Virus record (IMG/VR): IMGVR_UViG_3300031716_000028
Location: 1-37,994 of that record
DNA length: 37,994 nt
Strand: one strand, 5' to 3'
From: a virus
Lineage: Duplodnaviria; Caudoviricetes
Program-made: the position numbers and the translations under genes
Notes under the pieces: generated by a model
Databases searched by the model: none
What the model was told of the DNA's origin: nothing
Seen by the model: the letters and a program-made list of their open reading frames with translations, nothing else
Part shown: positions 1 to 37,994 of the stretch, piece by piece
How the letters are laid out: each line of letters opens with the position of its first letter
Position numbering within the stretch: position 1 is the first letter of the stretch

Positions 1-127
1 GCGTTTAATAATTTTCTGGCAGGCAAAGAGAATCAGCCGGTGCTGTTCTTTGACCTCGACAACTTCAAGAAAATCAACGACGAGTTAAGCCACGATGTAG
101 GCGATCAGGTTATCAATGCAGTCGGGA
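1..127. repeat. Terminal direct repeat (127 bp), identical to 37868-37994; circular-assembly overlap
   Basis: GCGTTTAATAATTTTCTGG...GCAGTCGGGA occurs at both ends. The length of 127 equals a common assembler k-mer, and the repeat lies inside a continuous ORF. Confidence 0.95.
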
Positions 128-10328: not shown

Positions 10329-10352
10329 GGTTATCTCCTCATGTTAAGAATT

Positions 10353-10379
10353 GCCCGCCGGTTTGAGGTCCCGGCGGGG
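10353..10379 (-). other. Intergenic GC-rich hairpin (weak terminator or processing/regulatory stem)
   Basis: CCCGCCGG-TTTGAGGTC-CCGGCGGG, with a poor U-tract. Confidence 0.5.
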
Positions 10380-10385
10380 TAAAGG

Positions 10386-11557: not shown

Positions 11558-11579
11558 GGTTTTGCTCCTGTGGATGGTT

Positions 11580-11619
11580 AAAAAAACGGGGCGCCTTTGA
11601 GGGTACGCCGGCGCCCCGT
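11580..11619 (-). terminator. Intrinsic terminator within the leftward operon
   Basis: Stem ACGGGGCGCC (11586-11595)/GGCGCCCCGT (11610-11619) followed on the minus strand by a T7 tract. Confidence 0.7.
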
Positions 11620-11629
11620 ATCCCTCGGC

Positions 11630-12901
11630 CTACGCAGCAGGTGAGGACTGCGCAGGTTGCGGATTCTTGACTTGCCCGTCCTCGATGACGATGCCGACCT
11701 GGCCGGACTCGTCGACGCGCTCGATCCAGACCTGATAATCCGAGTCGAGGGCCATGGCTTCGAGGGCTTTCAGGCTGTCGCTGTCCAGCAGCGAGCCGTC
11801 GGTAACGCGCAAGACACGCAGCTTGGGGTTCATTGCCATCGCCATGGCGACCGATACCCGCAGCTGCTCGGCCGCGCTGGCCTGCTCGAGCGGGATGCCG
11901 TTGAACAGGACGATGCCCTCGCCGAACTGCAGGCCTTTCACCGGCATCGTTGCGCTGCTGATAAGGTCGGCTTTCTGGGCGTCGACCGTTTCGATTTCAG
12001 CGGCGCAGGCTTTGCCGAGGGCCTCGACCGCTGCGACCTCCTCGCCGAGTTTTACCCATTTCTGGTACTGCTCGGCGTTCTTATTGGCGGCCTCAATGCC
12101 GTTTATCCGGGCCTTGATTTCCGCCAAGTCGCGCGGCTGCTGGTTCGCGATCGCCTCGATGTTCGGGCGGCGGGTTTTGATCGCTGCGATTCTTTCGCGG
12201 TACTCGGCGATACGGTCCTCGAGTTCAGCAATCTCTGCCTCGGCTCGCCTGACATCGCGGTCGCCCTCGGCGAGTCGCTGCTTGGCATCTTCGATGCCGG
12301 CATTGACGGCCGTCGCCTGCTGGTACTCATCGAGCAGCTCATTGGCCGAGACCGTTGCCTTGGCGCCATCGGGGTCGAACCGTATCGCCTCTTTCTGGGC
12401 GAGCAGGCTGCGGTACTGGCGGCCGTGGTCGGTGCGCCGGTCATAGGCGGCCTGCCGTTTCAGGTCCAGCTGGGAAAAGTCGAGGCCCAGCATTTCGCGC
12501 AGGGTTTTGAACTGCTCGGCCGGGCTCTGGCGCATAAATTCCAGCGGGTCGAACGACAGGCGGCCGACCAGCTCGTCGAGCATTTTCTGCGGGCTGCCGA
12601 ACTTCGCGCCCTCTTTGTTCCGGATTTCCAGCGCGCTCTCGACCTTGCCGTCCTTGTCCTTGAATTTCCGCTCGACGATGATGTCGCCGAGGTCGAGCGT
12701 TACCTGCGCGCGGTCCTGGCCTTTCCTGATCGGCTTCGCCTGAATCACCGAAGCCCCGCCGAGCGCAGCCATGATGCCGTCCAATATCGACGTTTTGCCG
12801 GCGCCGTTCTTCCCCGTAATCTGGACAACATGACCGTCGGGGGTTATCTCGACGGCGACCAGCTTTTTAAAATTTTCCGCTTTAAAGTTGAGAATTTTCA
12901 T
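11630..12901 (-). CDS. SMC/RecN/SbcC-like ABC ATPase with central coiled coil
   Basis: ENFKK, Walker A GKNGAGKTS, coiled coil, signature-like QASAAEQ, Walker B-like LRVTDGSLLD. Confidence 0.85.
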   Translation of the reverse strand: MKILNFKAENFKKLVAVEITPDGHVVQITGKNGAGKTSILDGIMAALGGASVIQAKPIRKGQDRAQVTLDLGDIIVERKFKDKDGKVESALEIRNKEGAKFGSPQKMLDELVGRLSFDPLEFMRQSPAEQFKTLREMLGLDFSQLDLKRQAAYDRRTDHGRQYRSLLAQKEAIRFDPDGAKATVSANELLDEYQQATAVNAGIEDAKQRLAEGDRDVRRAEAEIAELEDRIAEYRERIAAIKTRRPNIEAIANQQPRDLAEIKARINGIEAANKNAEQYQKWVKLGEEVAAVEALGKACAAEIETVDAQKADLISSATMPVKGLQFGEGIVLFNGIPLEQASAAEQLRVSVAMAMAMNPKLRVLRVTDGSLLDSDSLKALEAMALDSDYQVWIERVDESGQVGIVIEDGQVKNPQPAQSSPAA

Positions 12902-13722: not shown

Positions 13723-13920
13723 ATGGCAAAGAAATCGGACACCAAACAAATCTGGGCGCGCTTCACGCCCGAGCAGCTCGAGATAATTGACGCCGCTGCC
13801 GCTGAAGAAAATCGGACCCGCGCGTCCTACATCGCGAACGCTGTAATGACCTACACAAACGACAAGTTCGAGGTCGACGGCGCCGTGACGGAAGCGATCG
13901 CGGCCGAGGAAGAAGAATGA
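13723..13920 (+). CDS. Ribbon-helix-helix (Arc/CopG-like) transcriptional regulator
   Basis: Beta strand KQIWARF, then helices TPEQLEIIDAAAAEE and NRTRASYIANAV. First gene after the divergent promoters. Confidence 0.75.
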   Translation: MAKKSDTKQIWARFTPEQLEIIDAAAAEENRTRASYIANAVMTYTNDKFEVDGAVTEAIAAEEEE

Positions 13921-14348
13921 ACGAGCCGACCCCGGCGCGGGATGACCTGCTCTGCAGTCTCGACCTGCCGTTCCCCCCGTCGGTTAATTCGTACTGGCGG
14001 AACGTCGTCATCAAGGGCCGGCCGCGCACTCTGATATCGGAGGCCGGCCGGCAATACAAAGCCACCATTTTCGGCGAGGTCGTCGAGCAGCGGGCATGCG
14101 CGGCTGTGGCGCCGGATGCCAGGATTGCCGTGTACGTCCTGTTTAAAATGCCCGACCGGCGCCGGCGGGATATCGACAATTACCTAAAATCGCTCCTCGA
14201 CGCCATCACAGAGGCGCGGGTCTGGCTGGATGATTCACAGATTGACCTGCTGACCATCGAGCGGGGCGAGGTCGAGGCGCCAGGGCGGGCGCTGGTCGAG
14301 GTCTACCTGCTGCCCGGCGTGCAAAAAGTGTTGACAATCGGAGGTTAG
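13917..14348 (+). CDS. rusA: RusA Holliday junction resolvase
   Basis: Motifs LPFPPSVNSYWR, PDRRRRDIDNYLKSLLDAI and DDSQID. Confidence 0.92.
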   Translation: MNEPTPARDDLLCSLDLPFPPSVNSYWRNVVIKGRPRTLISEAGRQYKATIFGEVVEQRACAAVAPDARIAVYVLFKMPDRRRRDIDNYLKSLLDAITEARVWLDDSQIDLLTIERGEVEAPGRALVEVYLLPGVQKVLTIGG

Positions 14349-14359
14349 CGGCCGATACT
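14331..14359 (+). promoter_or_regulatory. Sigma70-type promoter for the accessory gene cluster
   Basis: TTGACA (14331-14336), 17 bp, GATACT (14354-14359). Confidence 0.65.
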
Positions 14360-14405
14360 ATCAGTGAAGGGCGCCACTCGGCAGACCCAAAACCGGAGGA
14401 ATCCG

Positions 14406-15359
14406 ATGACACAGCAAGAAATCCAAGTCCCCGACTTCCGGGGCGATATCAACTCCCAGACCGCGCAAGACGCATTCAACGGAACCAGCTGGTCGCCCGA
14501 GCGGCGCGGCCAGCAAATCATCGAGGAATATCAGGGCATGCTGGCCGCCGATTACGTCCAGCTCAAAGCCATGTTTGAAAAAGCTGGCAAGCCTGAGCTG
14601 TTCGAGGAGGAGTTCGCGCGTTACCGGCTGGGATTCAAAAACAAGTTCAACAGCTGGCTCTATGCAAAAAGCCGGTGTATTTCCAGCATGATCGCCGGCC
14701 CCTCGAATTTCCCGACCCGGCGGGCAGAGAAAGCAAACCGGTCGGAAGATAACCGGTATGGCGAGCTGAAAGAATTCCAGCAGCGGGCAAAAAAGGCCAT
14801 GGAAAAGCTCGTATATCCATACGGCGACGGGTCGGTCATCCGGGCGAATGACCCGGAGGCGGTCGAAAAATTACAGCAAAAAGTCGACCAGCTGAAAGCC
14901 CTGCAGGAAACCATGAAAGCGGCCAACAAGGTTGTTAAAAACAAGAAACTGACCGACGAGGAGAAGATCGCCAAGCTGGGCGAAATGGGATACCCCGGCG
15001 CCGTCGCGCGGGAAATTCTGAAGCCCGACTTTTGCGGCCGGATCGGGTTCGCCGACTACCAGCTGTCGAACAACCTCGCCAACATCAAGCGGGTCGAGCA
15101 GCGTATCGCCGACCTGCAACGGGCGGAAACCGCGCCGCAGCTCGAGTTCAAGACCGAGAACGGCATCGAGATTTTCGAGGACGAGGGCCGGGTACAGATC
15201 AAGTTCCCCGGCAAACCGGACGAAAAGGTCCGGGCAATGCTGCGGGGCGCCGCGTTCAAGTGGTCGCCGAGTCGGATGACCTGGGTACGGCAGGCAACAG
15301 GAAACGCCCGGTACGCCGCCGAGCAGCTGGTCAAGCAGCTGGCAGGGGGTGCGCAATGA
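14406..15359 (+). CDS. DUF3560-like mobile-element protein (317 aa)
   Basis: GGAGGA ribosome-binding site before ATG 14406. Motifs SSMIAGPSNFP, AVEKLQQK...QETMKAAN, YQLSNNLANIKR and RVQIKFPGKP...FKWSP resemble proteins of plasmids and phages. Confidence 0.55.
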   Translation: MTQQEIQVPDFRGDINSQTAQDAFNGTSWSPERRGQQIIEEYQGMLAADYVQLKAMFEKAGKPELFEEEFARYRLGFKNKFNSWLYAKSRCISSMIAGPSNFPTRRAEKANRSEDNRYGELKEFQQRAKKAMEKLVYPYGDGSVIRANDPEAVEKLQQKVDQLKALQETMKAANKVVKNKKLTDEEKIAKLGEMGYPGAVAREILKPDFCGRIGFADYQLSNNLANIKRVEQRIADLQRAETAPQLEFKTENGIEIFEDEGRVQIKFPGKPDEKVRAMLRGAAFKWSPSRMTWVRQATGNARYAAEQLVKQLAGGAQ

Positions 15360-15625
15360 TCACCAGCTATAAAAACCCATGGTATGAGCCCGGCGGCAAG
15401 TACGGCCCGCCGGTGTATACCTGCGAAAAGCGGCCGATGATCACCTACCGGGGCGTTCAGATTTTCAAGGTCTGGGAACGCCGGTATGACGTGGTAATGA
15501 ATGGCGTGTGCATAACCCAGCGCGCCGGCGCCAGCAACCCGCGCCAGCTGATCGACAACATCCTCGACGGCAAGGACCCATTTTCAGAACGGGCGCTCGA
15601 GATAGCCCGAGGAGCGGCTCAATGA
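15356..15625 (+). CDS. Hypothetical protein (89 aa)
   Basis: ATGA overlap with the upstream gene; MITSYKNPWY... Confidence 0.7.
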   Translation: MITSYKNPWYEPGGKYGPPVYTCEKRPMITYRGVQIFKVWERRYDVVMNGVCITQRAGASNPRQLIDNILDGKDPFSERALEIARGAAQ

Positions 15626-15816
15626 ACACCCTGAATATCCCGCTGGCCAACAACACCGACGCCCAACTGCTCGAGGAAATCGAGAAGCTGCAACAAATCC
15701 AGAAAACGCACCGCTCGACCTCGCCGGCATGGATCACCGCCGGCTCGTTGCTTGAGCCTTTATTCGCTGAAATGGCGCGCCGCCAGAGGGGGAACGATGA
15801 AAACCGCACTTTATGA
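15622..15816 (+). CDS. Hypothetical protein (64 aa)
   Basis: GAGGAG ribosome-binding site, ATGA overlap; MNTLNIPLAN... Confidence 0.65.
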   Translation: MNTLNIPLANNTDAQLLEEIEKLQQIQKTHRSTSPAWITAGSLLEPLFAEMARRQRGNDENRTL

Positions 15817-15964
15817 GCTGCTGACCGAACTCGAGGAGTATTTCGACCAGCGGGCCGACATCGGCGACCAGACCGAGACCGAACACGCCCCGCCGAACGA
15901 CGCTCTTATTTTCCGCGATCGCATCCGCGAGCAACTGAAGCCGATCAACGACGAGGAGGAGTAA
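15797..15964 (+). CDS. Small acidic hypothetical protein (55 aa)
   Basis: GAGGGGG upstream; MKTALYELLTELEEYFD... Confidence 0.6.
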   Translation: MKTALYELLTELEEYFDQRADIGDQTETEHAPPNDALIFRDRIREQLKPINDEEE

Positions 15965-15968
15965 AGCC

Positions 15969-16202
15969 ATGTACACGCAACACCCCGACTTGAAAGACCT
16001 GCCCGACCCATATCTGCCGGCCCAAAAGGCGCTGATTACGCACGTCGATCGCCGGCTCGAGGCTAAGGCCCGCCGCCGCATCGCGCTCGAGAAGTTCGAG
16101 CGGGACCTCGCCGAACAGGACCGCAAGGACCGCCGCTTTTTCTGGGTCTGCATCATCATCCTGCTGTCGTCCCCGGCCGTCGTCTGGTGGCTGACCGCAT
16201 GA
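15969..16202 (+). CDS. Small protein with C-terminal transmembrane segment
   Basis: GAGGAG ribosome-binding site; ends FFWVCIIILLSSPAVVWWLTA. Confidence 0.6.
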   Translation: MYTQHPDLKDLPDPYLPAQKALITHVDRRLEAKARRRIALEKFERDLAEQDRKDRRFFWVCIIILLSSPAVVWWLTA

Positions 16203-16429
16203 TTACGATACCGACATCGGGAGAATTTCGCGCGTTCCTACGCAAGCACGGGCTGACCGGTTCAAAGGCCGCCCAGCTGGCCGGGCTCAAGAACTCGCGC
16301 GGCATCCGCCGCATGTGCGCCGACGAGGCCAGCAAATACCACCGCCCGGTACCGCCGGGCGTCTGGCAAACTCTGCAGGACAAGGTCAACAAGGGGGAGC
16401 ACCTTGAAAACAATAATAAGCCTGTGTGA
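16199..16429 (+). CDS. Small helix-turn-helix DNA-binding protein
   Basis: FRAFLRKHGLTGSKAAQLAGLKNSRGIRRM fits an XRE-like HTH pattern; ATGA overlap. Confidence 0.65.
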   Translation: MITIPTSGEFRAFLRKHGLTGSKAAQLAGLKNSRGIRRMCADEASKYHRPVPPGVWQTLQDKVNKGEHLENNNKPV

Positions 16430-16962
16430 TTTTTCGGGGGAATGGTCAAGGCCATACGCAGAGGCAGGTTATCGAGTCATACAGATAGACATCGCGCACC
16501 CCGCTGGAATGCGCCAGGTTCGAGCGAACGTCTGGACCCTGGGCTGCGATATTCGGTATATGGCCGACCTCGGGCGCCCTTGGGGGATCTTGGCGGCGCC
16601 GTCCTGTACTTGCTTTTGCCGCCCGGGCGCGCGATGGTGGCCGCGCATGGACGCCAGCGGGCAAACAGCCGCCGATATAGAGCTTTTCCGAGCCTGCCTG
16701 CGAATCTGTCAGACCGCCGAGGGATTTTCGGCGCTCGAGAATCCGCCAGGACGGCACCCGCGTTTAATGCCCGAGATACCGCCGCCCAGCTGGCAGTTCC
16801 AGCCATGGGAGTACGGCGACCCGTGGGTCAAACAGACCTACACGACGCACCCCGAACGGTCGCAGCCAGGGGCGCATCGCCTTTATGTCGAGCAGCTGGA
16901 AGCGCGAACGCGAAAAAACACCCGCGGGCTTTGCCCGCGCATTCTTTGAGGCAAACCCATGA
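16404..16962 (+). pseudogene. Phage-type DNA cytosine methyltransferase, frameshifted near 16840
   Basis: Frame 0 has ISLCDFSGEWSRPY, ILAAPSCTCF, ALENPPGR and FQPWEYGDPWVKQT. The family C-terminus KTPAGFARAFFEANP* is in the +1 frame and ends at 16962, overlapping the next ATG. Confidence 0.7.
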
Positions 16963-17261
16963 ACCCCTTATTTATCCCGTTAAAAGCAGAGCATTACGAC
17001 GATTTCGAGGCCGGCGCCAAGGACCGCGAGCTGCGCAAATATGGCGCGCGCTGGAATCAAAAAACATGCCCGGTCGGCCGCGAGGTCATCCTGTCGCGCG
17101 GTTACGGACGGCGGGAACGCATGCGCGGCATAATCTCGGGCTTTGAACAAGCCTGCGCGACGCTGTTGCCCGAGCCGCACCGCTCTAAATTCGCGTCCTG
17201 TTACCCGGATTATGAGGGCTGGGCCGCCGTGATATTTATCTCGGAACTGCGCCCAGTATGA
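16959..17261 (+). CDS. ASCH/PUA-like domain protein
   Basis: LFIPLKAEHYDDFEAGAKDRELR (G-x-K-x-x-E-x-R motif), then VILSRGYG. Confidence 0.7.
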   Translation: MNPLFIPLKAEHYDDFEAGAKDRELRKYGARWNQKTCPVGREVILSRGYGRRERMRGIISGFEQACATLLPEPHRSKFASCYPDYEGWAAVIFISELRPV

Positions 17262-17761
17262 GCGGTAGAATCGGCTCGCCCGACCGCATCGGCAAAAGTG
17301 TCGAGTGGTACACACCGCGGTGGATCTTCGACGCCCTGGCGCTCGAGTTCGACCTCGACCCGGCCAGCCCGCACGACTTCGACACGCAGGTCCCGGCCCG
17401 CGTGAAATATACCCGGTTCGACGACGGCCTGAAAAAACCATGGTTCGGCGCGGTCTGGCTGAATCCGCCGTACAACAAAGACACGCCGTTTTGGATGCGG
17501 CGCCTGATCGACCACGGCGACGGGCTCGCGCTGGTGTTCAGCCGGACGGACGCCCGATGGTTTCAGGAATGCCTGAACGCCTGCAGCGCGTGCTTGCTGT
17601 TTCAGGGGCGTATCGAGTTCATCCCGGGCCATGAGAACGCGCACAAGGCCGCGAAATCCGGGGCCGGCTCGGCACTATTCGCCTTTGGCGATCGCTGCAG
17701 GGCGGCCATTCTGAATCTGCGAGACAGGGGCTTTTTAATCGACAAGGCGGTCACCGGATGA
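17258..17761 (+). CDS. Phage DNA N6-adenine methyltransferase (Dam-like phage family)
   Basis: Motifs EWYTP, FDLDPAS, DGL...W.G.VWLNPPY, RTDARWF and GRIEF. Confidence 0.9.
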   Translation: MSGRIGSPDRIGKSVEWYTPRWIFDALALEFDLDPASPHDFDTQVPARVKYTRFDDGLKKPWFGAVWLNPPYNKDTPFWMRRLIDHGDGLALVFSRTDARWFQECLNACSACLLFQGRIEFIPGHENAHKAAKSGAGSALFAFGDRCRAAILNLRDRGFLIDKAVTG

Positions 17762-18102
17762 AGAAAGCCCGCGACCCGTGGTATCCGTTCGCGTACGAAG
17801 CCTATGACCGAGACACAAAGGACCTTTCCGACGCCGCGGACCTGCTGTATAGACGATTGTTGACAGTGCTGTGGACAAATGGCGGTTTTATCCCGGTTGA
17901 CTGGGAATGGATCGGCAACCGGGTACGCAAGCGGCCGAGCACCGTGCGGAAGATTTTCGAGGCCGAGCTGGCTCAATTTTTCACCGTTCAGGGCTCGGAA
18001 ATGTATCAAAAGCGGCTGCTCGAGGAGTACAACAAAGCCGCCGACATAACGCAGAAACGTATCAACGCAGCAAAAAAGCGGAACGAGCCCGCCTGTGGAT
18101 AA
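17758..18102 (+). CDS. DUF1376/YdaU-like replication initiator (short, 114 aa)
   Basis: PWYPF...YDRDTKDLS....LYRRLL...W...G.IP and YQKRLLEE; immediately followed by origin-like DNA. Confidence 0.7.
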   Translation: MKKARDPWYPFAYEAYDRDTKDLSDAADLLYRRLLTVLWTNGGFIPVDWEWIGNRVRKRPSTVRKIFEAELAQFFTVQGSEMYQKRLLEEYNKAADITQKRINAAKKRNEPACG

Positions 18103-18320
18103 TTCTGTGGATTCTGGGGATAAATCGGCCTTTGACTGTGGAAAACACTTGCGTTTTGTAAAGATTTCAAAAAGATTATTCAAAATCTTTTCAAAATCTC
18201 GGAATTAAGTAATTGAAAAACAAGGGAACGCGCGGAGCAAATGCACACACATATTACAAGTATTTATATATATATTATTAAATTATAAATACTCAGTTAG
18301 TTATTTATGTATTAACCGAA
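18094..18320. other. Putative replication origin: DnaA-box cluster, short repeats and AT-rich unwinding region
   Basis: TGTGGATAA (18094), TGTGGATTC (18106), TGGGGATAA (18115), TGTGGAAAA (18137). TTCAAAA at 18166, 18179 and 18190. Very AT-rich stretch ~18250-18315 in a GC-rich genome. Confidence 0.75.
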
Positions 18321-18342
18321 AAGAAAGAGCGGAGCCAAAACC

Positions 18343-18909
18343 ATGACCACACACAGCAACGAGCGAGTTCTGAGACTGCGAAAAGGCGAAGTGATTTACA
18401 TCGCGGCACCACCCTACAAGCCGATCCTGATTCGGATCGACCCGAAGGTCGACGACATTGTCATCGAGGAAATCGACCCGCAGGACGTGCCAGAGACCGG
18501 GGAGAACGCAAGCGTGACATTCCCGAACCGCAGCGAAACACCGGAGCCCGAGGTCCTGGTATCGTCCACCGTGCAAGATCCCCAGGACTTTGCGGTGGAC
18601 CCTATCGACTTGGCAATCGAGAACGGCACCATCCAGCCCGTATTCCCTGAGCGATTCAACAAAAACGAGCCGCTACCGATCGACACCGCTGCGCAGCACA
18701 AAGCCGCCGTCGCGAAAACCATCAGCGCAGAGACCGAACTGTACAAGCACGAAAAAGTCGTGCACGGAGCCATAGTGTTCGGATATACACGCGATCCCGT
18801 AAGCCCGTACGACCGCAAGCCCGAACCCGAGAACGTGCAGCCAGCACCAGCAGGCGAACCACAGCAGCCCGACCTGCTACAGTCAGACATCCCTTTTGAC
18901 CTGAGTTAA
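18343..18909 (+). CDS. Hypothetical acidic, Pro-rich protein (188 aa)
   Basis: GGAG ribosome-binding site; sits between the origin and terS. Confidence 0.65.
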   Translation: MTTHSNERVLRLRKGEVIYIAAPPYKPILIRIDPKVDDIVIEEIDPQDVPETGENASVTFPNRSETPEPEVLVSSTVQDPQDFAVDPIDLAIENGTIQPVFPERFNKNEPLPIDTAAQHKAAVAKTISAETELYKHEKVVHGAIVFGYTRDPVSPYDRKPEPENVQPAPAGEPQQPDLLQSDIPFDLS

Positions 18910-18912
18910 ATC

Positions 18913-19560
18913 ATGGCAAGCAAAGCGATACTGGAAACCGTCAACGACCAGCAGGAAATATTCTGCCAGGACTACGCAACCCGCCTGCATGCCGGTAAGG
19001 CAGCGGAAAACGCGGGATATGCACGCGAATACGGGTACCAGCTGCTTAAATTGCCTCACATCATCGAGCGAATCGCAGAAATACAGCGGAACGGCGGCAT
19101 CCGCATGATCGTGACCCAAGGCAAGGTAGTACGCGAGGCTGCCTATCTGGCGTACTCGGACATCACCGACGTTGTCGGGGTAAACACCGTCGAGGCCCTC
19201 AAGGCTTTACCCGAGAACGTGCGTAGGGCCATCCAGAGCATCAAAATGACCCGTACCCCTATACTGCGGGATGGGTCGGCCGATCGTCGCTCTCAGCGCA
19301 CTACAGAGCTCCTGGATGCCACTTCCGAAAGTGCCCAAACTTGTCACAAAGTGACAGACGGGGTTCTGTACGAGGAAACGATCGAGATCAAAATGCACCC
19401 GAAAATGGAAGCCATCAAGCTGCTCGCCCTGGTCACTCAGGCCGTCAAAGATCCCGAGGACCTGCGCAAGCAGGCGCCCGCATTTACCGGCATGGCGATC
19501 ACGGTCGCCCAGCCTAAAAAAGCACTTTCGAGCAAAAAACGGAGCGAAAACGATGAATAA
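18913..19560 (+). CDS. terS: Terminase small subunit
   Basis: QEIFCQDY...AGKAAENAGY...LLKLPHIIERI, LAYSDITDV and IKMHPKMEAIKLL. Confidence 0.85.
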   Translation: MASKAILETVNDQQEIFCQDYATRLHAGKAAENAGYAREYGYQLLKLPHIIERIAEIQRNGGIRMIVTQGKVVREAAYLAYSDITDVVGVNTVEALKALPENVRRAIQSIKMTRTPILRDGSADRRSQRTTELLDATSESAQTCHKVTDGVLYEETIEIKMHPKMEAIKLLALVTQAVKDPEDLRKQAPAFTGMAITVAQPKKALSSKKRSENDE

Positions 19561-19771
19561 AGAACTGTCCGAAATTGCGAAATACTTCGACTGGGCGGGC
19601 CTGATTATCGCCGCCCTGTTCTTCGCGCTGGGCTATGTGCACGGCGGATTCGATCAGCCGAAGCCCGAGCCCTGCCCGGTGTGCGATGCGCAGCCCTTTT
19701 GCCAGGTCATGGGCTCGCCCGTCGGCGGCCGCATGGCGCAGCTGCCCGAGGGCGTAGGCCCGCGCGATTAG
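19553..19771 (+). CDS. Small membrane protein with Cys-containing tail
   Basis: WAGLIIAALFFALGYV hydrophobic segment, then PCPVC; GGAG upstream. Confidence 0.55.
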   Translation: MNKELSEIAKYFDWAGLIIAALFFALGYVHGGFDQPKPEPCPVCDAQPFCQVMGSPVGGRMAQLPEGVGPRD

Positions 19772-19785
19772 TTCCACGTGAAACC
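19771..19785. promoter_or_regulatory. parS-like site (GTTCCACGTGAAACC), copy 2
   Basis: Same 15-mer as 511-525; at a gene boundary, about 1.7 kb from the origin. Confidence 0.7.
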
Positions 19786-19989
19786 GATGGACCTTAAGCT
19801 TTCCGCCGCGCTGTCGATCGCTGGCAAGCACCGCGAGCTGACGCCATCCAGCCAGAAAGCGAGCTGCCCGCCAGAGCAGCGAATTACGTGGCGCCGTGGT
19901 GGGAAAAGCGGTATAACGACGACTACGGCCAGTTCATCCGCGCGAACTGGTCGCACTTCAAGGCTTTAATCAAACCGGAGACCTGACCC

Positions 19990-20298
19990 ATGGCAATGTT
20001 CAAAAAAGTAATGCTCAAGACCGAAAGCGGCGATCCCGTCCGCCCGGAGGGCTTCACCATTCCCAGCTTCGACAATTTCGTCAACCGCCAGGGCGCGCGG
20101 GGATTTCCCGAGGTCCTGTTCTGGAATGAGCGGGTTTTCGTGTTCACGTCGTTCGACCGGCCGCTGACCGATGGCGCGCCGAACGTGGGCGTGTATACCG
20201 AAAGCTTCGCCGCGGCGATCGTGCCGATTCCCGAGATTGACGACAACGGGTTCAAGCTGACCGATTCCAGCGACGAGGCCAACCCGGCCGACGCGTAA
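19990..20298 (+). CDS. Hypothetical protein (102 aa)
   Basis: GGAG upstream; codon usage typical of the genome. Confidence 0.65.
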   Translation: MAMFKKVMLKTESGDPVRPEGFTIPSFDNFVNRQGARGFPEVLFWNERVFVFTSFDRPLTDGAPNVGVYTESFAAAIVPIPEIDDNGFKLTDSSDEANPADA

Positions 20299-20324
20299 CA
20301 CCGCAACAACACGGAGCCACCACC

Positions 20325-21002
20325 ATGAAACTCAGAGTTACGCGGGTTTTCCCCGCATTCCTGCGCGGGATACTCTCGCCCGCCGATATCGCGATTAAGC
20401 CCGGCCCGGCGGTTCAGGTATTGCCGACGCCCGAGCAGGGCGAGCTGCAGCGGTTGCGCCTGCGCGTGAATGAGCTGACGCGCGAGGTCGAAGAACTGCG
20501 GCGCGGCCAGCCCGACCCGGTCACCGCGGCCAAGCGTTTCGATATCGCGCTCATCAAGCAGGCCGATAAATCGCAGGCGCAGGGCATCAAGTTCCGCCGG
20601 CTGAAGGGCGAGGTTGTCCGCATGAAAACGCTGTACGGGCACATCGCGCCGTATCTGCGCAGCCTGCCGAAAGCCGGGTTTTCCCAGCTGCAAAAGGCGG
20701 CGATCGATGATATTGCGTATGCGGCCGAGCAAATCGGCGCGATCGACCCGGACCTGTTCGGGCTGTCGCGCGCCGAGGAGGTCCGCGTCATCGAGCAAAA
20801 GAACCTCGCGCGTGCCGTCCTGGCGGGCCTCGATGTTGTCAACCAGCTGTCGGCAGACCATAATCCCCAGACTTCAAACAACGGAGCACTGACCCATGAC
20901 GACAGCAACAGCAGGCAAGCCGAAAATCAAGCTCAAGGCCAGAACGCCAGCGCCAGCCCCTACAGCAGCCACCCCCAAGAAGACGACGGCGAAGCCGGCT
21001 AA
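20325..21002 (+). CDS. Hypothetical coiled-coil protein (225 aa)
   Basis: GGAG ribosome-binding site; LQRLRLRVNELTREVEELRR. The 3' end overlaps the next gene. Confidence 0.65.
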   Translation: MKLRVTRVFPAFLRGILSPADIAIKPGPAVQVLPTPEQGELQRLRLRVNELTREVEELRRGQPDPVTAAKRFDIALIKQADKSQAQGIKFRRLKGEVVRMKTLYGHIAPYLRSLPKAGFSQLQKAAIDDIAYAAEQIGAIDPDLFGLSRAEEVRVIEQKNLARAVLAGLDVVNQLSADHNPQTSNNGALTHDDSNSRQAENQAQGQNASASPYSSHPQEDDGEAG

Positions 21003-26547: not shown

Positions 26548-26817
26548 ATGGAGTTTGAACAAATCCTCCCGCATATCAAGGCGGGGCAAAGAGCCTGCCG
26601 CGCTGGCTGGAACGGCAAAGGCATGTTTGTTTTTTTAGTGCAAGGTAGCCGGTTCAAAGTGAACAGGCCGCCGCTGCTCGGGATTTATCCCGAGGGTACG
26701 GAAATCAGCTATCGCGCGCACATCGACATGAAAACAGCTGACGGTCAAATCGTTCCTTGGGTTGCATCGCAGTCCGACCTGCTGGCTGATGACTGGCAAC
26801 TGACGAACGACAGCTAA
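26548..26817 (+). CDS. DUF2829 / Tad2-family immune-signal sponge protein
   Basis: M.FE..L..IK.G....RAGWNGKGMFVFL...IDMKTADG..VPWVASQSDLLADDW is the DUF2829 signature; AGGAG ribosome-binding site. Confidence 0.85.
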   Translation: MEFEQILPHIKAGQRACRAGWNGKGMFVFLVQGSRFKVNRPPLLGIYPEGTEISYRAHIDMKTADGQIVPWVASQSDLLADDWQLTNDS

Positions 26818-31019: not shown

Positions 31020-33946
31020 AACAGCACCCGATTCAGACCAATTTCACATCGGGGGAACTCGACCCCCGCATGGCCTCGCGAATTGACGTTCAGCAGTACT
31101 ACAACGGCGCCGAGCGCCTGCGCAACGTCATCGTTAACCACTTGGGCGGTGCGGTACGCTGCCCGGGCATGCAGCACATCGACGTGCTCGACCCGCTGGT
31201 CCTCGCACTCGAGAACTCAGTCACCGCCACCGCCCCGAACGGCGGCACCGCTGCGAACGGTCTCGACGACGATTTCAATACCAAAGTAACCACTACCGGC
31301 AATATCGGGACTACAAACCCCTACGTGGTGCTGCATTACGACCTCGGGGCCGACGTAGATATCCGGTCTGCTGAAATCATCGGGGCCTCGACCGACGTGT
31401 CGACAGCCGACTCTGACGATACCGGCCTGCGCAAGGTGAACAAAAGCAGCAACGACGCGAGCGTCGGAGATAAGCCGTGGGATGCACCGAACGGCAGCAA
31501 CCTCGGCGCGGTGCAGCTGGGCTTTGATGCCAGCAATAACCAAAGCTACTATCTGCGGTGCATGAACCCGAACGTCTCCCGGCTGATCCCGGCGGACGCG
31601 ACCATCGTCGGCGTACAGGCGCAAATCACGAAAAAAAAGGGCTCGACCAGCTTCGACCAGAACATCGAGGACGCGCAGGTGCGGCTCGTCGTCAAGGGCG
31701 TCATCGTCGGCAACAACAAGGCCGCCGCCGGCGACTGGCTTGGCAGTTTCTTTACAACGACCTACGGCGGCGCCGCCGACCTGTGGGGCTATTCCCTGAC
31801 GCGCGAGCTGGTCGTCCGGTCTGACTTCGGCATTGCCATATCGGCCAGGACCAACGAAGTTATCGGCTCGGCCTATGCCGTGGTCCAGTCGGTGAAGATC
31901 AAAATTTACTATTCCACGGCGGTCACCGCCTCGCCCTCGGAGTTCCGCATCCAGTACTCGACCGACGACGCAGCTTGGAATAACTACGGCGATGCCTTCC
32001 AGGTGCGCGACAATGACGAGGTTTCGTTCCGCCACACCGAGGTCGTTACCGCCCGGTATTGGCGGTATGCCCGCATCGGCGCCACCAACCTCGGCACGGC
32101 TAAGGCCATCGTCCGGAACTTCAACGTGTTCGCCGACACGACCAGCTTCGCCTCGACCGGCGGCCTGTCCGACTGCGCGTTTGTCGACTTCGATTTTTCG
32201 CTGGACCAGCGGTATATGATCGTTTTCACTGATCGAAACGCAGCGGTGTACGAGAACGGCATCCTGCAGACCAACCTGCCGACGCCCTACACGTCGGATA
32301 TGTTGGGCCTGCTGCGCTGGGATCAGCGCCTCGACACGGTCGCCCTGTTCCATCCGGACGTCCCGCCGCAAATCATGCAGCGCCAGGGCCGGGCCGATCG
32401 GTGGGTTTTGAAGGCGATGGTTTTCGACTATATCCCCAAGTACGCCTTCAACCTGGTCGTCACCAACCCGAACCAGACGTTGACCCCCTCGGCCGTTACC
32501 GGCTCGATTCTGCTGACGGCGGGCGGCTCGACGTTTGTGGCGGGCGATGTTGGTCAATACGTGCGCGGCAACGGCGGGGTCGCGCGGATTTATGAGTACA
32601 CGTCGGGGACCGTGGTCAAGGCTCGCGTCGAGATTCCGTTCCGCGACAGCAGCGCCATCCCGGCCGGGAGCTGGAAGCTCGAGCGCGGCTATGAGGCGGC
32701 ATGGTCGACGACCCGCGGCTGGCCGAACTGCGGCCTTTTCTATCAGGGCCGCCTGTGGATCGGTGGCGCGCGGAGCCTGCCGGATACTATTTGGGGCTCG
32801 CGACTGTCTTTGTTTTTCGACTTCGACCCTGGCCGCGCGGACGCTGACGACGCGATCGAGGCGACCCTCGAAAACCGCGACGTGTCCGGTATCCTGAACA
32901 TCGCTGCCGCTAATCACCTGCTCTTTTTCACGAAGACGGCCGAGTTCTATATCCCGCAGGCGCCGAACGAGCCGCTCACCCCGTCGAACTTCCTGCCGCG
33001 CAAAGCCGATAACAAGGGCAGTCGCACGGGCACCAATGTCGTGAACGCCGACGGCGTCACTATTTTTGTGCAGACCGAGGGCGCGAGCATTCAAAAGCTC
33101 AAGCTCGCAGATGGCACGACGCAGACGGATGAAAACAGCATCTATGCGGCCGAGGATATTTCCGGCCTGTCGGCGCACTTGATTGTTACACCGGTACAGA
33201 TTGCCTTCCGCAAGGCAACCGGCCCGGATGACCCGAACCTGCTGCTGGTCGTCAACAGCGATGGCACGCTGGCCATTTGCACGCTCGAGCAAAAGCAGGG
33301 CATTCAGGCATGGACGCTGCGCAGCACGAACGGCCTAGTTAAGCGGGTCGGCGTCATCGGTAACGAGATTTATCTGATGGTCGAGCGCACCATCGACGGC
33401 GTCGCCAAGCGTTTCATCGAGCGATTCAATAATAATTGCACGCTGGACGGCGCGGTATTTGTGGAGGTCGACGAGCCTGTGACCTTAGTCACCGACCTTG
33501 AGGATATTTTCGGCAGCGAGGAAGTGCAGATTATCCTCGACGACGCCTACCAAAACCCGCAATCGGTCGAGGGCGGCGAGTTGACATTCGACAGGGAAGC
33601 GGCGGTTAATTATCAAATCGGCTTTGGCTTTGATCCTCTGATCAGGCCGATGCCGGTGGCACGCAACCCCGACGGCGGCGCTGTCTTACGTGGCAAAAAG
33701 CGGGTTTCCGAAGTGCTGCTATTCTTGTACAAAACCCGGTGGGCTGAAATTAACGGCCAGCCCGTCGGCCTGCAGCAGTACGGCGCCGCGCCCTCGCCGC
33801 TCGATAACACCCTGCAACCGTTCACCGGTCACAAGACGGTCGACGGCCTGCTGGGATGGAGCGAGGAGGGCCAGTTTGATATAACGCAGGGCGGCATCCC
33901 GGTTTCCATGACCATCACCGGCATCGAGATGAAAGTCAGGCTATGA
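31016..33946 (+). CDS. Tail nozzle / tail tubular protein B (T7 gp12-like) with large inserted domains
   Basis: QTNFTSGELDP, GGAVRCPG, GWP....FYQGRLW.GG, IWGSR...FFDF and QAWT motifs; 976 aa. Confidence 0.88.
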   Translation: MKQHPIQTNFTSGELDPRMASRIDVQQYYNGAERLRNVIVNHLGGAVRCPGMQHIDVLDPLVLALENSVTATAPNGGTAANGLDDDFNTKVTTTGNIGTTNPYVVLHYDLGADVDIRSAEIIGASTDVSTADSDDTGLRKVNKSSNDASVGDKPWDAPNGSNLGAVQLGFDASNNQSYYLRCMNPNVSRLIPADATIVGVQAQITKKKGSTSFDQNIEDAQVRLVVKGVIVGNNKAAAGDWLGSFFTTTYGGAADLWGYSLTRELVVRSDFGIAISARTNEVIGSAYAVVQSVKIKIYYSTAVTASPSEFRIQYSTDDAAWNNYGDAFQVRDNDEVSFRHTEVVTARYWRYARIGATNLGTAKAIVRNFNVFADTTSFASTGGLSDCAFVDFDFSLDQRYMIVFTDRNAAVYENGILQTNLPTPYTSDMLGLLRWDQRLDTVALFHPDVPPQIMQRQGRADRWVLKAMVFDYIPKYAFNLVVTNPNQTLTPSAVTGSILLTAGGSTFVAGDVGQYVRGNGGVARIYEYTSGTVVKARVEIPFRDSSAIPAGSWKLERGYEAAWSTTRGWPNCGLFYQGRLWIGGARSLPDTIWGSRLSLFFDFDPGRADADDAIEATLENRDVSGILNIAAANHLLFFTKTAEFYIPQAPNEPLTPSNFLPRKADNKGSRTGTNVVNADGVTIFVQTEGASIQKLKLADGTTQTDENSIYAAEDISGLSAHLIVTPVQIAFRKATGPDDPNLLLVVNSDGTLAICTLEQKQGIQAWTLRSTNGLVKRVGVIGNEIYLMVERTIDGVAKRFIERFNNNCTLDGAVFVEVDEPVTLVTDLEDIFGSEEVQIILDDAYQNPQSVEGGELTFDREAAVNYQIGFGFDPLIRPMPVARNPDGGAVLRGKKRVSEVLLFLYKTRWAEINGQPVGLQQYGAAPSPLDNTLQPFTGHKTVDGLLGWSEEGQFDITQGGIPVSMTITGIEMKVRL

Positions 33947-34446
33947 GCACCAGCAGCGGCACCACCGTACAGAGCAACAGCGGCAAACAGGACATTTCGT
34001 CCTCGCAGCTGATTTCAGGCGGCGCGTCCTTTTTCACCATGTTCAGCGATCGCCAGCAGTCCATCGAGACCGCGCGGGGGCTGAACGCCAGCGCCCAGGA
34101 CCTCGAGCAGAATGCGCGAGTCGAGAAGGTAAACGCCGACGCTGCGAAAAACGAGCTGCAGCGCCGGCTGAATACGACGCTGGCCAACAACGCCGCCGCC
34201 CTGTCGATCGCCAATGTTGACCCGACTTCGGGATCTGCGCGGCTGATTCAAGAGCAGTCCGAGGGCGAGTTCAATACCGCCTTTTTTAACACAGACCTCA
34301 ATTCCCGCATCCGTGTCGCACAGCTGAAGCGTCAAGCGGCGCAGGCCAGGACCGACGCCTCGGCCGTCAACCGTGCCGGTAAAACCAAGCTGCTGATCGA
34401 CTTCGGTACCTCTATCGCGAAATTCGCCGCCGGCGGTGCTTTTTAA
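33943..34446 (+). CDS. Small internal virion protein (gp14-like position)
   Basis: Ala/Gln-rich helical protein with NVDPTSGSA motif, directly after the nozzle. Confidence 0.7.
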   Translation: MSTSSGTTVQSNSGKQDISSSQLISGGASFFTMFSDRQQSIETARGLNASAQDLEQNARVEKVNADAAKNELQRRLNTTLANNAAALSIANVDPTSGSARLIQEQSEGEFNTAFFNTDLNSRIRVAQLKRQAAQARTDASAVNRAGKTKLLIDFGTSIAKFAAGGAF

Positions 34447-36701
34447 TGGGCCTCGAAAAGTTCAAGACCGAAACCCAAGGGCTGCAGAGCGTCGAGGTCA
34501 GCGACGGCGGCGCCCGTAGCCGGGTTGCCAGGTTGCAGGAAATCGGCAATTCCGTACGCGAACTGTCGGCCGCAGTGGCTCCCATGGCGCAGCGCGCGAC
34601 CGTGAACCAAGCCCAGCAGCGCGGACAGGCCGACGCCTTAAGCGGTAACTTTCAGCCCCAGCGCAATGCCACCCTCGCCGCGCAGGAATACAACCGCGCC
34701 GGCTTCGACACCGCGCTGTCCGAGCTGGAAATCACGATGCGCAACCGCATCGATACGATTTACAACGAGGCTAAGCACAGCCCCGCCGAGCTGAAAACCC
34801 GCTTTGATACCTACCGCCAGGAAATCGAGGGCCAGCTGGGCGGCAGCGACAAGGCCGATATCCTGCCGCAGTTCCGCGCCATGTATGACCGCGCGACGCT
34901 GCCGCACCTGCAAGCCTCAGTCCGCGCCGATCAGGAAACCACTGCCGCGACGAATGCCGCGCAGGCGATGAACGTGCTCGAGACCCGTACCAACAACGCC
35001 GAGCGGTTCGCGCGGACGCAGGAAATCGACCAGCAGGCCGGCGTCGCGCTGTTACAGGAAGCCCAAGAATTCGAGCAGCTGCTCGTCAAGCACGGACCCA
35101 AGGAAGCCTTCGCCTTTAACGGCGTGCAGTACGAAGCCGACCCGGCCCGGTCGGGCGTGTTTTCGCCGGTGGAAATGGAGAAACACTCCCAAGAATGGGA
35201 CGAGCGTATGGCGCAGGCGGCGGTCCTCGGCGGGTTCGATCGCGCCGGCGGCCTCGCTGAAAAGGAGGCATATGTCAACGCATTCGAGAAGCGGGAAAAG
35301 GGCCGCCAGGGCAGCCCGTTTAATCTCGATCAGGTCGACCAGCTGGCCAACCGCATGCGCATTGACATCAACCGCGACCGGGCGCAATCCGATCACTTCA
35401 AGGCCGAGCTGCAGAAACAGATCAACGAAGCCGAGAAGGTTTACAACGAAGGGCATATCCCGGCCGGTATTACGGCGCTGACCCGGTCGGCGGCTGCGTA
35501 TCCGGACCTGACCGCGCAGCTCGAGATTCTGAAAACCAACTCGGGCGCCGCGTCGAATTTCAGCAAGATGCGGCCCGACCAGCAGGCGCAGGTCCTCGGG
35601 AAATTCGAGAACATCGAGGTTATGACGCCGGCTGATATTAAGCTGAAAAAGCAAATGGAACAGATCCATACTGAGACGGCGAACCTGCTCAAAACTGATC
35701 CGGTTTCTTTATTGCCGCGTCTGCGGCAGGAAGTCCCGGCGGTTGACCTGTCCAATCCTGCGACCTTTGCCAACCGCGCCGGCACGTCGGGGATGATTAA
35801 ATCGTATTATGGCAAGGACCATCACGGCCTCTATAAGTCCGAGGTCGAGGGCCTTTCCACCATCCTGCACAACAACACGGCGGACGTTAACGCCGGCTAC
35901 CTGATGAACATGCGCGCCGGCATGGACGACATCAGGCTGCGGTCGCTGGCGCAGGACCTCGCCCCGAAAAACCCGGAGTTTGCCGCGTTCATGGGTATCG
36001 CTGCCGAGCGGTCCGATATCGTCGCCGACGGCCTGCAGGGGATGGACGTGCTAAAACTGGACAGCGGCATGCTGCCCGATGGCGCTACCTTGAAGTCGAT
36101 CACCGATGACTATTTCGGTGATGACGTCGACGGCATCGGCATCCACGGCACCAACCGCGTCATGATCGAGCAGGCGGCGCTCGCGGTCGATGCCGGCCGC
36201 CGCGACAAGCTCGGCCAGAAGGGCAAGGAAAACTTCGACGAGACCAAGTTCAAACAGGCGCTCGAAGACATTACCGGCGGCACGTTCCGTTACAAGGGCA
36301 AAAAGATCATCACGCCCGAGCGCGGCATGGACGTAGACACGTTCAAAAACATCGTCGACACCCTGACGCAGGACGATATCAAGGGCATGAGCGTCGGGAT
36401 GGCGGGTGCCACTGATGCGGGCAGCCCTGCCATCCGAATCTTTGCGCCCGGCACGCAGCCCGCCAGCCAGGTCAAAATCGACGACTTCAAAAAACAGGCC
36501 AAGCTCCAGAGCATTGGCGAGGGCCGTTATCTCGTCATGCTGCCGGGCGGCTTTGTCCGTTCCAGCGATCCGGCGCACGCCGATCAGTTCGGGAATTATG
36601 TGCTGGATATGAAAGCCATGCTGCCCGACCTGAAAACCCGTAATAAGCGGGTCACCATCATGGGCATCAATCTCGCGCCCGACCTGTCACAGGCTCGCTG
36701 A
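34446..36701 (+). CDS. Internal virion/ejection protein (751 aa)
   Basis: Large helical Ala/Gln-rich protein in the ejection-protein block, translationally coupled at both ends. Confidence 0.7.
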   Translation: MGLEKFKTETQGLQSVEVSDGGARSRVARLQEIGNSVRELSAAVAPMAQRATVNQAQQRGQADALSGNFQPQRNATLAAQEYNRAGFDTALSELEITMRNRIDTIYNEAKHSPAELKTRFDTYRQEIEGQLGGSDKADILPQFRAMYDRATLPHLQASVRADQETTAATNAAQAMNVLETRTNNAERFARTQEIDQQAGVALLQEAQEFEQLLVKHGPKEAFAFNGVQYEADPARSGVFSPVEMEKHSQEWDERMAQAAVLGGFDRAGGLAEKEAYVNAFEKREKGRQGSPFNLDQVDQLANRMRIDINRDRAQSDHFKAELQKQINEAEKVYNEGHIPAGITALTRSAAAYPDLTAQLEILKTNSGAASNFSKMRPDQQAQVLGKFENIEVMTPADIKLKKQMEQIHTETANLLKTDPVSLLPRLRQEVPAVDLSNPATFANRAGTSGMIKSYYGKDHHGLYKSEVEGLSTILHNNTADVNAGYLMNMRAGMDDIRLRSLAQDLAPKNPEFAAFMGIAAERSDIVADGLQGMDVLKLDSGMLPDGATLKSITDDYFGDDVDGIGIHGTNRVMIEQAALAVDAGRRDKLGQKGKENFDETKFKQALEDITGGTFRYKGKKIITPERGMDVDTFKNIVDTLTQDDIKGMSVGMAGATDAGSPAIRIFAPGTQPASQVKIDDFKKQAKLQSIGEGRYLVMLPGGFVRSSDPAHADQFGNYVLDMKAMLPDLKTRNKRVTIMGINLAPDLSQAR

Positions 36702-37994
36702 TGGGTATCCCGCTCGACTCTCGGCAGATTCAGCAGCAGGCCGCGATGACGCCCGCCCTCGGTGCGCCGACGGGCCTGCTCGAAAATACGTTCGCCGCCC
36801 TCGACCAGTTCCGCCGCGAGAACATCATCACGTCCGAGGTCAATAATTGGGGCGAGGAATGGCAGGCGCAGCACGACCTCGCGCTTAAGCATGGCGTCGA
36901 CCTGTTGGCAAACTGGAACCAGCCGCCCGATCAGGCGGCTTTACAGTGGATGGCCGAGACCGGCCGCAGCGCGCCCGAGTATTGGCACCAAAAGCGCGAC
37001 CAGCAGGTTGCCGCGTTAAAGCAGCAGTTTCCCGATGCCGGGTTCAAGACCAACGAGGAAATGTTCGTCGGCATGACCGAGCGACTCGCCCAGCAACGGG
37101 CAGGCGCGGAAAGTGTCCGGGCCAGGGCGACCGGCCCCGGCCAGTTCGGCGCATTCCTCGGCGACACCGCCGGCGCAGTTTCCGACCCCCTTGTTGCCCT
37201 CACTCTGCCCTTCGGTGCGAGCGCAGGCGCTTCGATCCTGCGGGCCTCACTGACAGAGGCGGTACTCGCGAGCGCGACGGAGGCGGCCATACAGCCCCAG
37301 GTGGCGCAGTTCCGCGCAGCGATCGGCAACCCACAAGCCGAGGGCGAGGCCATGCGGAATATCCTGCTGGCGGGCGCCGGCGCGGGTACTCTCGCCGCTG
37401 GCCTGCGCGCCATCCCGGTCGGCTACAGGGCATTGGCCCAGCAGTTCCGCAAGGAAGTCGACGCGGGACGTATAAAGCCCAATGTACAGCAGCAGGCCGC
37501 GCTAGATTTATTGGAGCGCCAAGCAGCCGAGGAAGACAGCAACCCTTTCAATCGTTCGCTGGAGGGCGCTACAGAGGCTCATGCGGCCAATCTGAAAGCG
37601 GCAGATACCGCCGCCCGCGAGGGGACGACCGTCAAAGCGGCCGACTTGCAGGCCCCGGAGCGGCCGGCAGACGCAGGCGAGCTGATCGAACGCCGGTCAA
37701 ATACCGCCAAGCGGCAGGAAGTCGAGAACCTGCAGGCCCGTGTATCGGACCTCAAGGGCAAGCTCGCGCGCGGCGAGGCGACGCAGGACGAGGTTCTAAA
37801 AGCCCTCGATGACCTCGACAATGCTCTCCATACGTCAACCAAAGCGCCCGCCCTCAAGAACGAGCGGGCGTTTAATAATTTTCTGGCAGGCAAAGAGAAT
37901 CAGCCGGTGCTGTTCTTTGACCTCGACAACTTCAAGAAAATCAACGACGAGTTAAGCCACGATGTAGGCGATCAGGTTATCAATGCAGTCGGGA
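36701..37994 (+). CDS. 5' part of the 645-aa internal virion protein with GGDEF domain (continues at the start of the window; missing from ORF track)
   Basis: ATG at 36701 (TGATG overlap). Open frame MGIPLDSRQIQQQ...GQFGAFLGDTAGAVSDPLVALTLPFGA...LKALDDLDNALHTSTKAPALKNERAFNNF runs in frame into the terminal repeat. Confidence 0.9.
   Translation, partial: MGIPLDSRQIQQQAAMTPALGAPTGLLENTFAALDQFRRENIITSEVNNWGEEWQAQHDLALKHGVDLLANWNQPPDQAALQWMAETGRSAPEYWHQKRDQQVAALKQQFPDAGFKTNEEMFVGMTERLAQQRAGAESVRARATGPGQFGAFLGDTAGAVSDPLVALTLPFGASAGASILRASLTEAVLASATEAAIQPQVAQFRAAIGNPQAEGEAMRNILLAGAGAGTLAAGLRAIPVGYRALAQQFRKEVDAGRIKPNVQQQAALDLLERQAAEEDSNPFNRSLEGATEAHAANLKAADTAAREGTTVKAADLQAPERPADAGELIERRSNTAKRQEVENLQARVSDLKGKLARGEATQDEVLKALDDLDNALHTSTKAPALKNERAFNNFLAGKENQPVLFFDLDNFKKINDELSHDVGDQVINAVG
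37868..37994. repeat. Terminal direct repeat, copy 2 (identical to 1-127)
   Basis: Exact match to the window start. Confidence 0.95.

Follow-up and report, generated by a model that had tools for sequence, protein, structure and literature searches.

The DNA analysed here (the window) is a 37,994-nt stretch, positions 1 to 37,994 of IMG/VR record IMGVR_UViG_3300031716_000028, from an uncultured tailed phage of the Caudoviricetes. Its two ends interrupt a gene that places a GGDEF (diguanylate cyclase) domain inside a scaffold resembling internal virion proteins. The ends share an exact 127-bp identity, the sole overlap in the 10–2000-bp range, and removing it leaves a 37,867-bp circle; the viral record (G000) is classed as having direct terminal repeats and as 100% complete. 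Across the closure, 36701–37867 (389 codons) and 1–771 form a 1938-nt reading frame with zero internal stops. The original prediction, made from the letters of the window, had proposed this 645-amino-acid (aa) frame on the strength of the 127-bp overlap, and it is borne out both by closure of the circle and by identity of the product to database protein P0001. The gene has the following features, where ‘slot’ refers to its position in a block of ejection genes.

36701–37660, plus strand: N-terminal scaffold, aa 1–320, all-helical, with Gly/Ala-rich helices at aa 141–245 (profile relatives; model pLDDT 87)
37688–37714, plus strand: ERRxxxxxR motif, aa 330–338, at the start of the cassette (occurrence across slot relatives)
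37703–37828, plus strand: two helices before the GGDEF domain, aa 335–376, a candidate dimerization element (AlphaFold helices 335–356 and 362–376)
37835–37994, plus strand: first part of the GGDEF domain, aa 379–431 (PF00990; WspR alignment; 37868–37994 repeats window 1–127)
1–432, plus strand: GGDEF domain, aa 390–533 (D407, K412, N415, D424, GGDEF loop at 178–192, K521)
433–531, plus strand: variable, low-confidence linker, aa 534–566 (pLDDT <50; lowest identity between clades)
532–771, plus strand: acidic C-terminal scaffold tail, aa 567–645 (sole cysteine Cys636 at 739–741; terminal Cys of the family; phiV10 p19 match)
37868–37994, no strand: 127-bp terminal repeat, an assembly overlap equal to window 1–127 (end-to-end identity; direct terminal repeats class)

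An assembly chimera of a phage gene and a host cyclase gene, a danger that the original prediction had itself raised, could have produced the same arrangement. The contig break does interrupt the GGDEF domain, a region to which many host cyclase genes also align in short pieces, and the domain is lower in GC. However, a 37,897-nt contig from run X1, perhaps the source sample, is cut at a different place and carries window 34000–37994 at its positions 16488–20482, and a contig from run X2, which belongs to another study, spans 36378–37993 and continues into window 128 onward, with window 1–278 also covered. Because the first contig is cut elsewhere and the second crosses the break, the junction is not chimeric. 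Moreover, the same fusion occurs in seven homologues, and phage scaffold lies on both flanks of the domain. The fusion is, with near certainty, real, and we count the chimera, whose probability is vanishingly small, as already refuted. Soil metagenome is the label of 19 of the 20 runs listed as containing the sequence, of which six were aligned to the window, and no RNA run is among those listed.

The window has a podovirus layout: its portal and scaffold are of the T7 type, and it further encodes an adaptor, a nozzle, a tail fibre and a block of four coupled genes whose products have 167, 751, 645 and 819 aa. Phage phiV10 has the identical gene order of adaptor, nozzle, small proteins, gp15, gp16 and gp17. 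The three genes that share the block with the GGDEF gene are these.

33943–34446, plus strand: 167-aa small internal virion protein, first gene of the block (phrog_418, E 3e-4; phiV10 p17, E 2e-4 among 9 sequences)
34446–36701, plus strand: 751-aa gp15-slot protein, coupled to the GGDEF gene (weak phmmer matches to same-slot proteins)
768–3227, plus strand: 819-aa internal virion protein like epsilon15 gp17 (phrog_684, E 2e-156; 119 phage records including phiV10)

The GGDEF gene is third in this block, as originally proposed, and its coupling on both sides is directly evident from TGATG at 36699–36703 and GTGA at 768–771. The GGDEF gene follows the nozzle and gp15-slot genes and immediately precedes the gp17 homologue, which is the gp16 slot; phmmer matches of the 751-aa protein to its same-slot counterparts in SI2, ZCVPP1 and phiV10 are weak (E 4e-11, 6e-7 and 4e-3, among 9 sequences). 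In epsilon15, gp17 is described as IVP-D and gp15 and gp16 as IVP-C-like (Hardies et al., PMC4819975), and the internal proteins are reported to be ejected into the host (review, PMC8954989). The epsilon15 gp16 position upholds the claim that this is an internal-virion slot, and cytoplasm-acting enzymes occupy it in relatives. Prophage relatives of the module are mostly in Alphaproteobacteria, judged by record titles.

The scaffold belongs to a widespread family. A profile of residues 1–320 matches 1604 proteins at E<=1e-3 (1.84 billion representatives), and of the loci with a gp17-like gene, 69 of 80 in IMG/VR and 68 of 77 in genomes have a scaffold homologue upstream of it (137/157); the IMG/VR loci that lack one are mostly cut contigs. 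The N-terminal half had been described as Gly/Ala-rich and hydrophobic, which is true of residues 141–245 (39% Gly/Ala) but not of the rest, the 19-residue hydropathy maximum being 1.4, and this 19-residue scan revealed no clear transmembrane helix in the 645-aa protein. The acidic C-terminal segment, also noted originally, proves to be the conserved scaffold end that bears the only cysteine. Among relatives of at least 500 aa, 119 of 121 have a Cys within the last 15 residues, versus ~2% expected, and in 118 it is the sole Cys. Likewise, in the loci used for cysteine pairing (L005–L084 and L086–L162, taking the gene upstream of the gp17-like match), every slot protein has the terminal Cys (69/69 and 68/68), and the downstream protein has an N-terminal Cys in 68/69 and 64/68 loci (132/137). 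In the present phage, the pair consists of Cys636 of the GGDEF protein and Cys7 of the 819-aa protein, which is the latter’s only Cys and is invariant (4/4).

A structural precedent for such a pair comes from the pre-ejectosome of cyanophage A4, in which cryo-EM shows gp27 inserted by its C-terminal helix into gp26, with a Cys1715–Cys5 disulfide (PMC12002296). Common to both phages is a known or predicted ejection protein that ends in a helix and a Cys opposite an N-terminal Cys of its neighbour. No sequence or fold match to a solved ejection protein was found, and the likeness extends to the cysteine pattern only. By analogy, Cys636 likely tethers the GGDEF protein to its gp17-like neighbour, and the terminal-Cys pattern is the best indirect evidence suggesting that the protein is a core component. 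We consider it very probable that the GGDEF protein is in the virion. Searches of solved structures returned no sequence match to the scaffold or gp17-like protein and no fold match to the scaffold (best Z 6.7), and matches in a viral library are unnamed, DdrB-like or polyvalent-associated proteins. Pattern scans of viral_contigs and genome_contigs found no relatives of the N-terminal half, and the metagenome scan found only the window’s own contig; a single-sequence scan with the gp17-like protein gave no match, an alignment-based query being required. P0001 likewise has no direct match to phrog_1145, the family of epsilon15 gp16 and phiV10 p19. Nevertheless, it resembles these proteins in its position before a gp17 homologue, its length, its weakly similar ends and its terminal Cys, and two phrog_1145 members, P0156 and P0158, bear a related GGDEF domain (47% identity). 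By contrast, phiV10 p19 contains no recognized enzyme cargo.

What lies between the conserved ends varies. In 145 relatives, Pfam (E<=1e-3, with a few calls below the curated cut-off) recognizes a zeta-like kinase in 14, PBECR3 in 3, ART-PolyVal in 3, another ART in 1, RelA/SpoT in 2, and GNAT, an N-terminal SLT and GGDEF in 1 each, the majority having no Pfam match; a ParB-like region, found with a local profile and labelled via a phrog_1033 match, is present in 33. ParB-like and zeta-like regions are also the commonest recognized slot cargos of the fetched loci (45 and 23 of 69 in IMG/VR; 19 and 5 of 68 in genomes). The slot protein of locus L070 (5829–7001) has 390 aa, with scaffold joined directly to tail and no cargo. 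The suggestion that GGDEF is a swappable cargo is thus supported by comparison of same-position proteins, since zeta-like, ParB-like, ART, RNase and RelA cargos occur in the same slot. Although 21 of 69 slot proteins contain the string ‘QFKxGGDEFGV’, it was rejected as a cyclase; none of them matches the GGDEF profile, and the string appears to be part of the ParB-like cargo.

GGDEF is rare in the slot, being found in 5 of the top 150 relatives and in 0/137 slot proteins from the fetched loci. Scaffold and GGDEF domain occur together in eight proteins (P0001–4, P0007–9 and P0011), whose GGDEF domains fall into two subtypes that are mutually 30–35% identical. Over aa 190–320, the scaffolds of the seven fused homologues are 45–91% identical to that of P0001 in six cases and 34% identical in P0011. 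The closest GGDEF domains outside the family, at the 47% identity given above, are those of P0156 and P0158 (691 and 682 aa), which have phrog_1145 scaffolds (E 1e-51 and 9e-35) and a terminal Cys; P0157 is a 1040-aa protein with a related GGDEF cassette, the ERR motif and an RTGDEF loop. The ERRxxxxxR motif is present in 9/11 phage GGDEF proteins, 1/120 non-GGDEF relatives and 0/69 IMG/VR slot proteins. Scaffold and GGDEF trees of the eight proteins conflict (AU test, p 9e-5 and 2e-5), and because the trees disagree, the cassette must have moved between lineages. On a 49-row scaffold tree, the zeta carrier P0005 is nested in the GGDEF group with support 99, and a single clade of the seven GGDEF rows is not rejected (AU p 0.065). 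The GGDEF domain has a GC content of 0.53 and a third-position GC content (GC3) of 0.61; the scaffold parts have a GC of 0.66–0.69 and a GC3 of 0.78–0.81, and GC3 across the scaffold parts and other genes is 0.78–0.85. The low GC3 fits an acquired insert. In a phage collection, GGDEF matches in 25 records are weak (24–46% identity), and the annotated ones resemble host genes.

The domain itself scores 46.3 bits in the PF00990 profile check that had been proposed, against a cut-off of 23.8, and the top Foldseek rows are all cyclases, with DgcZ and PleD foremost. D407, D409, K412, N415, D416, H420, D424, G450–F453 and K521 are conserved in all eight fused proteins. This group includes the metal-binding and loop set D407, D451 and E452 (8/8, although the first loop Gly is Ser in 3/8) and the guanine-binding N415 and D424 with the transition-state K412 (8/8, mapped via WspR and DosC), which we take to correspond to N335, D344 and K332 of PleD. 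The feedback RxxD site is absent from all eight, with ELGI at aa 440–443 in P0001. The residue preceding the loop is Lys448, in contrast to a Tyr in WspR and DosC. The description of a full, canonical GGDEF domain thus stands for the metal, guanine and loop residues but not for the DxLT turn and the cross-dimer Arg, which are gone. Similarly, the coiled coil proposed in front of the domain is helical in the model but consists of two helices and a turn (335–356, 362–376), and ~25 aa of this helical stretch are absent in P0003 and P0004, so the helices count as a candidate dimerizing element. Among the single-base variants listed from other runs (40 of 81), 24/40 are synonymous versus 23% expected, and none falls at 15 catalytic positions. 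Pfam identifies GGDEF alone in P0001, with no second activity; longer relatives do combine cargos, for example ParB-like with zeta-like or RelA. Asp424 predicts guanine specificity, making cyclic di-GMP (c-di-GMP) the most likely product.

Like the canonical cyclases PleD, WspR and DgcR, the phage domain has the GGDEF fold and loop, a helix in front of it, the metal-binding Asp, the guanine-binding Asn/Asp and the transition-state Lys. Unlike them, it lacks a sensor domain, RxxD, DxLT (in this subtype) and the cross-dimer Arg, and has Lys rather than Tyr or Leu before the loop. The cross-dimer Arg is reported in 94% of predicted cyclases and is replaced in the cGAMP-making Hypr enzymes (PMC6456294). 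The phage domain resembles the Hypr enzyme GacA in this replacement and in its Asp-type GGDEF loop, but has Asp (D424, 8/8) rather than Ser/Thr at the base-binding position, and cGAMP is therefore not predicted. On sequence grounds, the protein is a PF00990 member yet neither a canonical class I cyclase nor a Hypr enzyme, nor is it strictly polyvalent.

The idea of an injected GGDEF domain has a precedent in print. Iyer et al. (2017; PMC5512222) included GGDEF in the domain repertoire of phage and prophage polyvalent proteins for which they predicted injection, with Acetonema longum WP_004096050.1 as a published example, and proposed interference with host nucleotide signalling. Our protein shares with these the presence of GGDEF in a late-gene product, the predicted packaging and injection and the proposed role; moreover, their repertoire of ART, PBECR, ParB-like, RelA/SpoT and zeta-like kinase domains is the cargo list of the slot. 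The published example, however, is a multi-enzyme giant, with nine or more domains, whereas the present protein has 645 aa and one enzyme domain. The main text of that paper names no epsilon15 gp16 carrier; its supplements may list such cases. T4 Alt, discussed in the same source, is likewise an enzyme injected from the head but is an ADP-ribosyltransferase (PMC5512222). The YIP peptides of PB1-like phages raise host c-di-GMP and cut motility in lytic infection, but are expressed after entry and act on the host cyclase YfiN (PMC8085984). We found no experimental study of a virion GGDEF protein in the literature searched, most subscription journals being outside its coverage. The original statement that no characterized example was known therefore agrees with this search, although the idea itself had already been published.

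Elsewhere in the window, genes for RecT, a RecE-like protein, an exonuclease and an SMC-like ATPase lie at 8452–12901 (minus strand), and genes for RusA, a primase-like protein and a Dam methylase lie at 13917–18102 (plus strand). No integrase was found among the 41 + 30 open reading frames scanned, and a promoter scan gave fewer sites than in shuffles. A gene for a Tad2-like anti-Thoeris sponge at 26548–26817 (plus strand; PF11195, E 3.5e-25) is flanked by the portal block and the scaffold gene. The closest solved forms of this Tad2 are short-insert proteins (8v3e, 9eib), and a role as a partner that soaks up c-di-GMP was ruled out, as it is of the short type rather than the c-di-GMP-binding long-insert type (PMC10680739). 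Among relatives, Vibrio phage ZCVPP1 (L001 9279–12081) has eight small annotated genes between its gp16-slot and gp17-like genes and two further genes between its gp15 and gp16 slots. The record named ‘Dunaliella viridis virus SI2’ (L003 8966–11344) has a ParB-like-looking cargo (phrog_10691) in the same slot; its capsid is the closest to that of the present phage (57.5%), and SI2 therefore looks like a bacterial podophage.

We favour a model, to which we give about an even chance, in which the phage injects an unregulated c-di-GMP synthase that is active, acts at entry and makes c-di-GMP. The protein would be made from the late structural operon and kept in the capsid core, where its C-terminal helix and Cys636 would bond to Cys7 of its gp17-like neighbour, in the manner of gp27 and gp26 in cyanophage A4. 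On ejection, the cargo would enter the cytoplasm, which the ART, RNase, ParB-like and RelA cargos found in this slot must reach as well. Several copies arriving together could place two GGDEF domains face to face, with the help of the two helices and the ERR motif, and convert host GTP to c-di-GMP without feedback control. The weakest step is the last, in which the host would be pushed at once into a high-c-di-GMP state, with motility off and its surface changed. We rank this shift first among possible purposes because of the analogy to the YIP peptides, and an anti-defence role second. Control of a phage receptor by c-di-GMP has been described for N4 (PMC8669472). Assuming 2–6 dimers and a kcat of 0.03–0.33/s, of which the upper kcat is taken from DgcR and the other inputs are assumed, we estimate a build-up of 0.06–2 µM c-di-GMP in 10 min in a 1-fL cell, and thus the effect could be real or negligible.

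Several observations weigh against this model. Host phosphodiesterases would remove a yield as small as the lowest estimate, and virion presence, cytoplasmic delivery and cyclase activity are all predictions from sequence. The cargo is dispensable for the slot, as the 390-aa L070 relative and the 0/137 slot proteins with GGDEF illustrate, and in P0006 and P0010, which lie on one 3708-nt contig and are a close variant of P0009, a frameshift, genuine or an assembly error, separates scaffold from GGDEF. The link to phiV10 p19 is weak (family profiles, E 7e-5 for the N-terminal and 1e-6 for the C-terminal part, among 349 sequences). In addition, several features of canonical cyclases have changed: the cross-dimer Arg is absent in 8/8 (E, Q, W or K; E388 in P0001), the DxLT wide turn is replaced in P0001 and four others (DxL[TS] is present in P0003, P0004 and P0011), the Arg preceding xGGDEF is His in 5/8, and the Tyr proposed to make a dimer contact in DgcR (Y286) is not retained.

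Altered dimer-contact residues also underlie a quite improbable alternative, in which the domain is a module that binds GTP or c-di-GMP as a sensor or sponge and has little or no cyclase activity. The change of R to E388 and the loss of DxLT and Tyr would suit such a module, and the Arg-rich ERR motif could bind nucleotide. Binding-only GGDEF domains, however, usually lose the metal-binding, guanine-binding and general-base residues, which are intact here across two subtypes that have diverged to 30–35% identity. An active cyclase might instead matter late, with copies made from the operon raising c-di-GMP during assembly and the injected copies doing little. This reading gains from the coupling of the gene into the late operon, whose protein output would far exceed the injected amount, and from the low-end estimate of 0.06 µM for the injected copies, but a late role has no need for insertion into a core protein, and the slot is repeatedly used for enzymes that make sense at entry. 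We regard it as improbable, though less so than a mere binding module.

An anti-defence device is also unlikely, yet stands ahead of both. Here, a cyclic dinucleotide, perhaps not plain c-di-GMP, would occupy immune receptors or keep them repressed, or GTP would be drained. Such interference was proposed by Iyer et al. (PMC5512222), and the slot otherwise carries conflict enzymes. Moreover, loss of the cross-dimer Arg is common to the cGAMP-making Hypr enzymes, these phage domains are marked by the ERR motif and a basic pre-loop residue, and the phage encodes a Tad2-like sponge; some sponges trigger Panoptes, which is held silent by cyclic dinucleotides (PMC12657218). On the other side, Asp424 is retained where Hypr enzymes carry Ser, the Tad2 is of the short type, STING-type CBASS of Bacteroidota is activated rather than silenced by c-di-GMP (PMC10680739), and our literature search gave no report of c-di-GMP blocking a defence system. 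A more specific proposal, slightly more doubtful than the general one, is that phage GGDEF cassettes form a distinct enzyme clade, whose injection would supply a decoy or non-standard cyclic dinucleotide and so silence nucleotide-based immunity before any phage gene is expressed. The clade would be characterized by the ERR motif, the basic pre-loop residue and the absence of the cross-dimer Arg and feedback site. If true, this phage counter-defence would create a signal instead of destroying one or soaking it up.

More broadly, in the literature consulted, phages handle nucleotide signals by means of sponges, phosphodiesterases and peptides that activate a host cyclase after entry. A prediction of 2017 envisaged a second-messenger synthase delivered from the capsid; we found no test of it. 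The GGDEF protein of this phage appears, from its sequence, to work like the predicted polyvalent effectors; what is new here is a compact carrier with a single cargo, cassette exchange that is directly evident, and several substitutions specific to the phage domains. Because a single 210-aa cassette sits in a small core protein that has natural variants with other cargo or none, its activity, product and purpose are directly testable. More generally, the slot resembles a natural carrier for bringing enzymes into bacterial cells.

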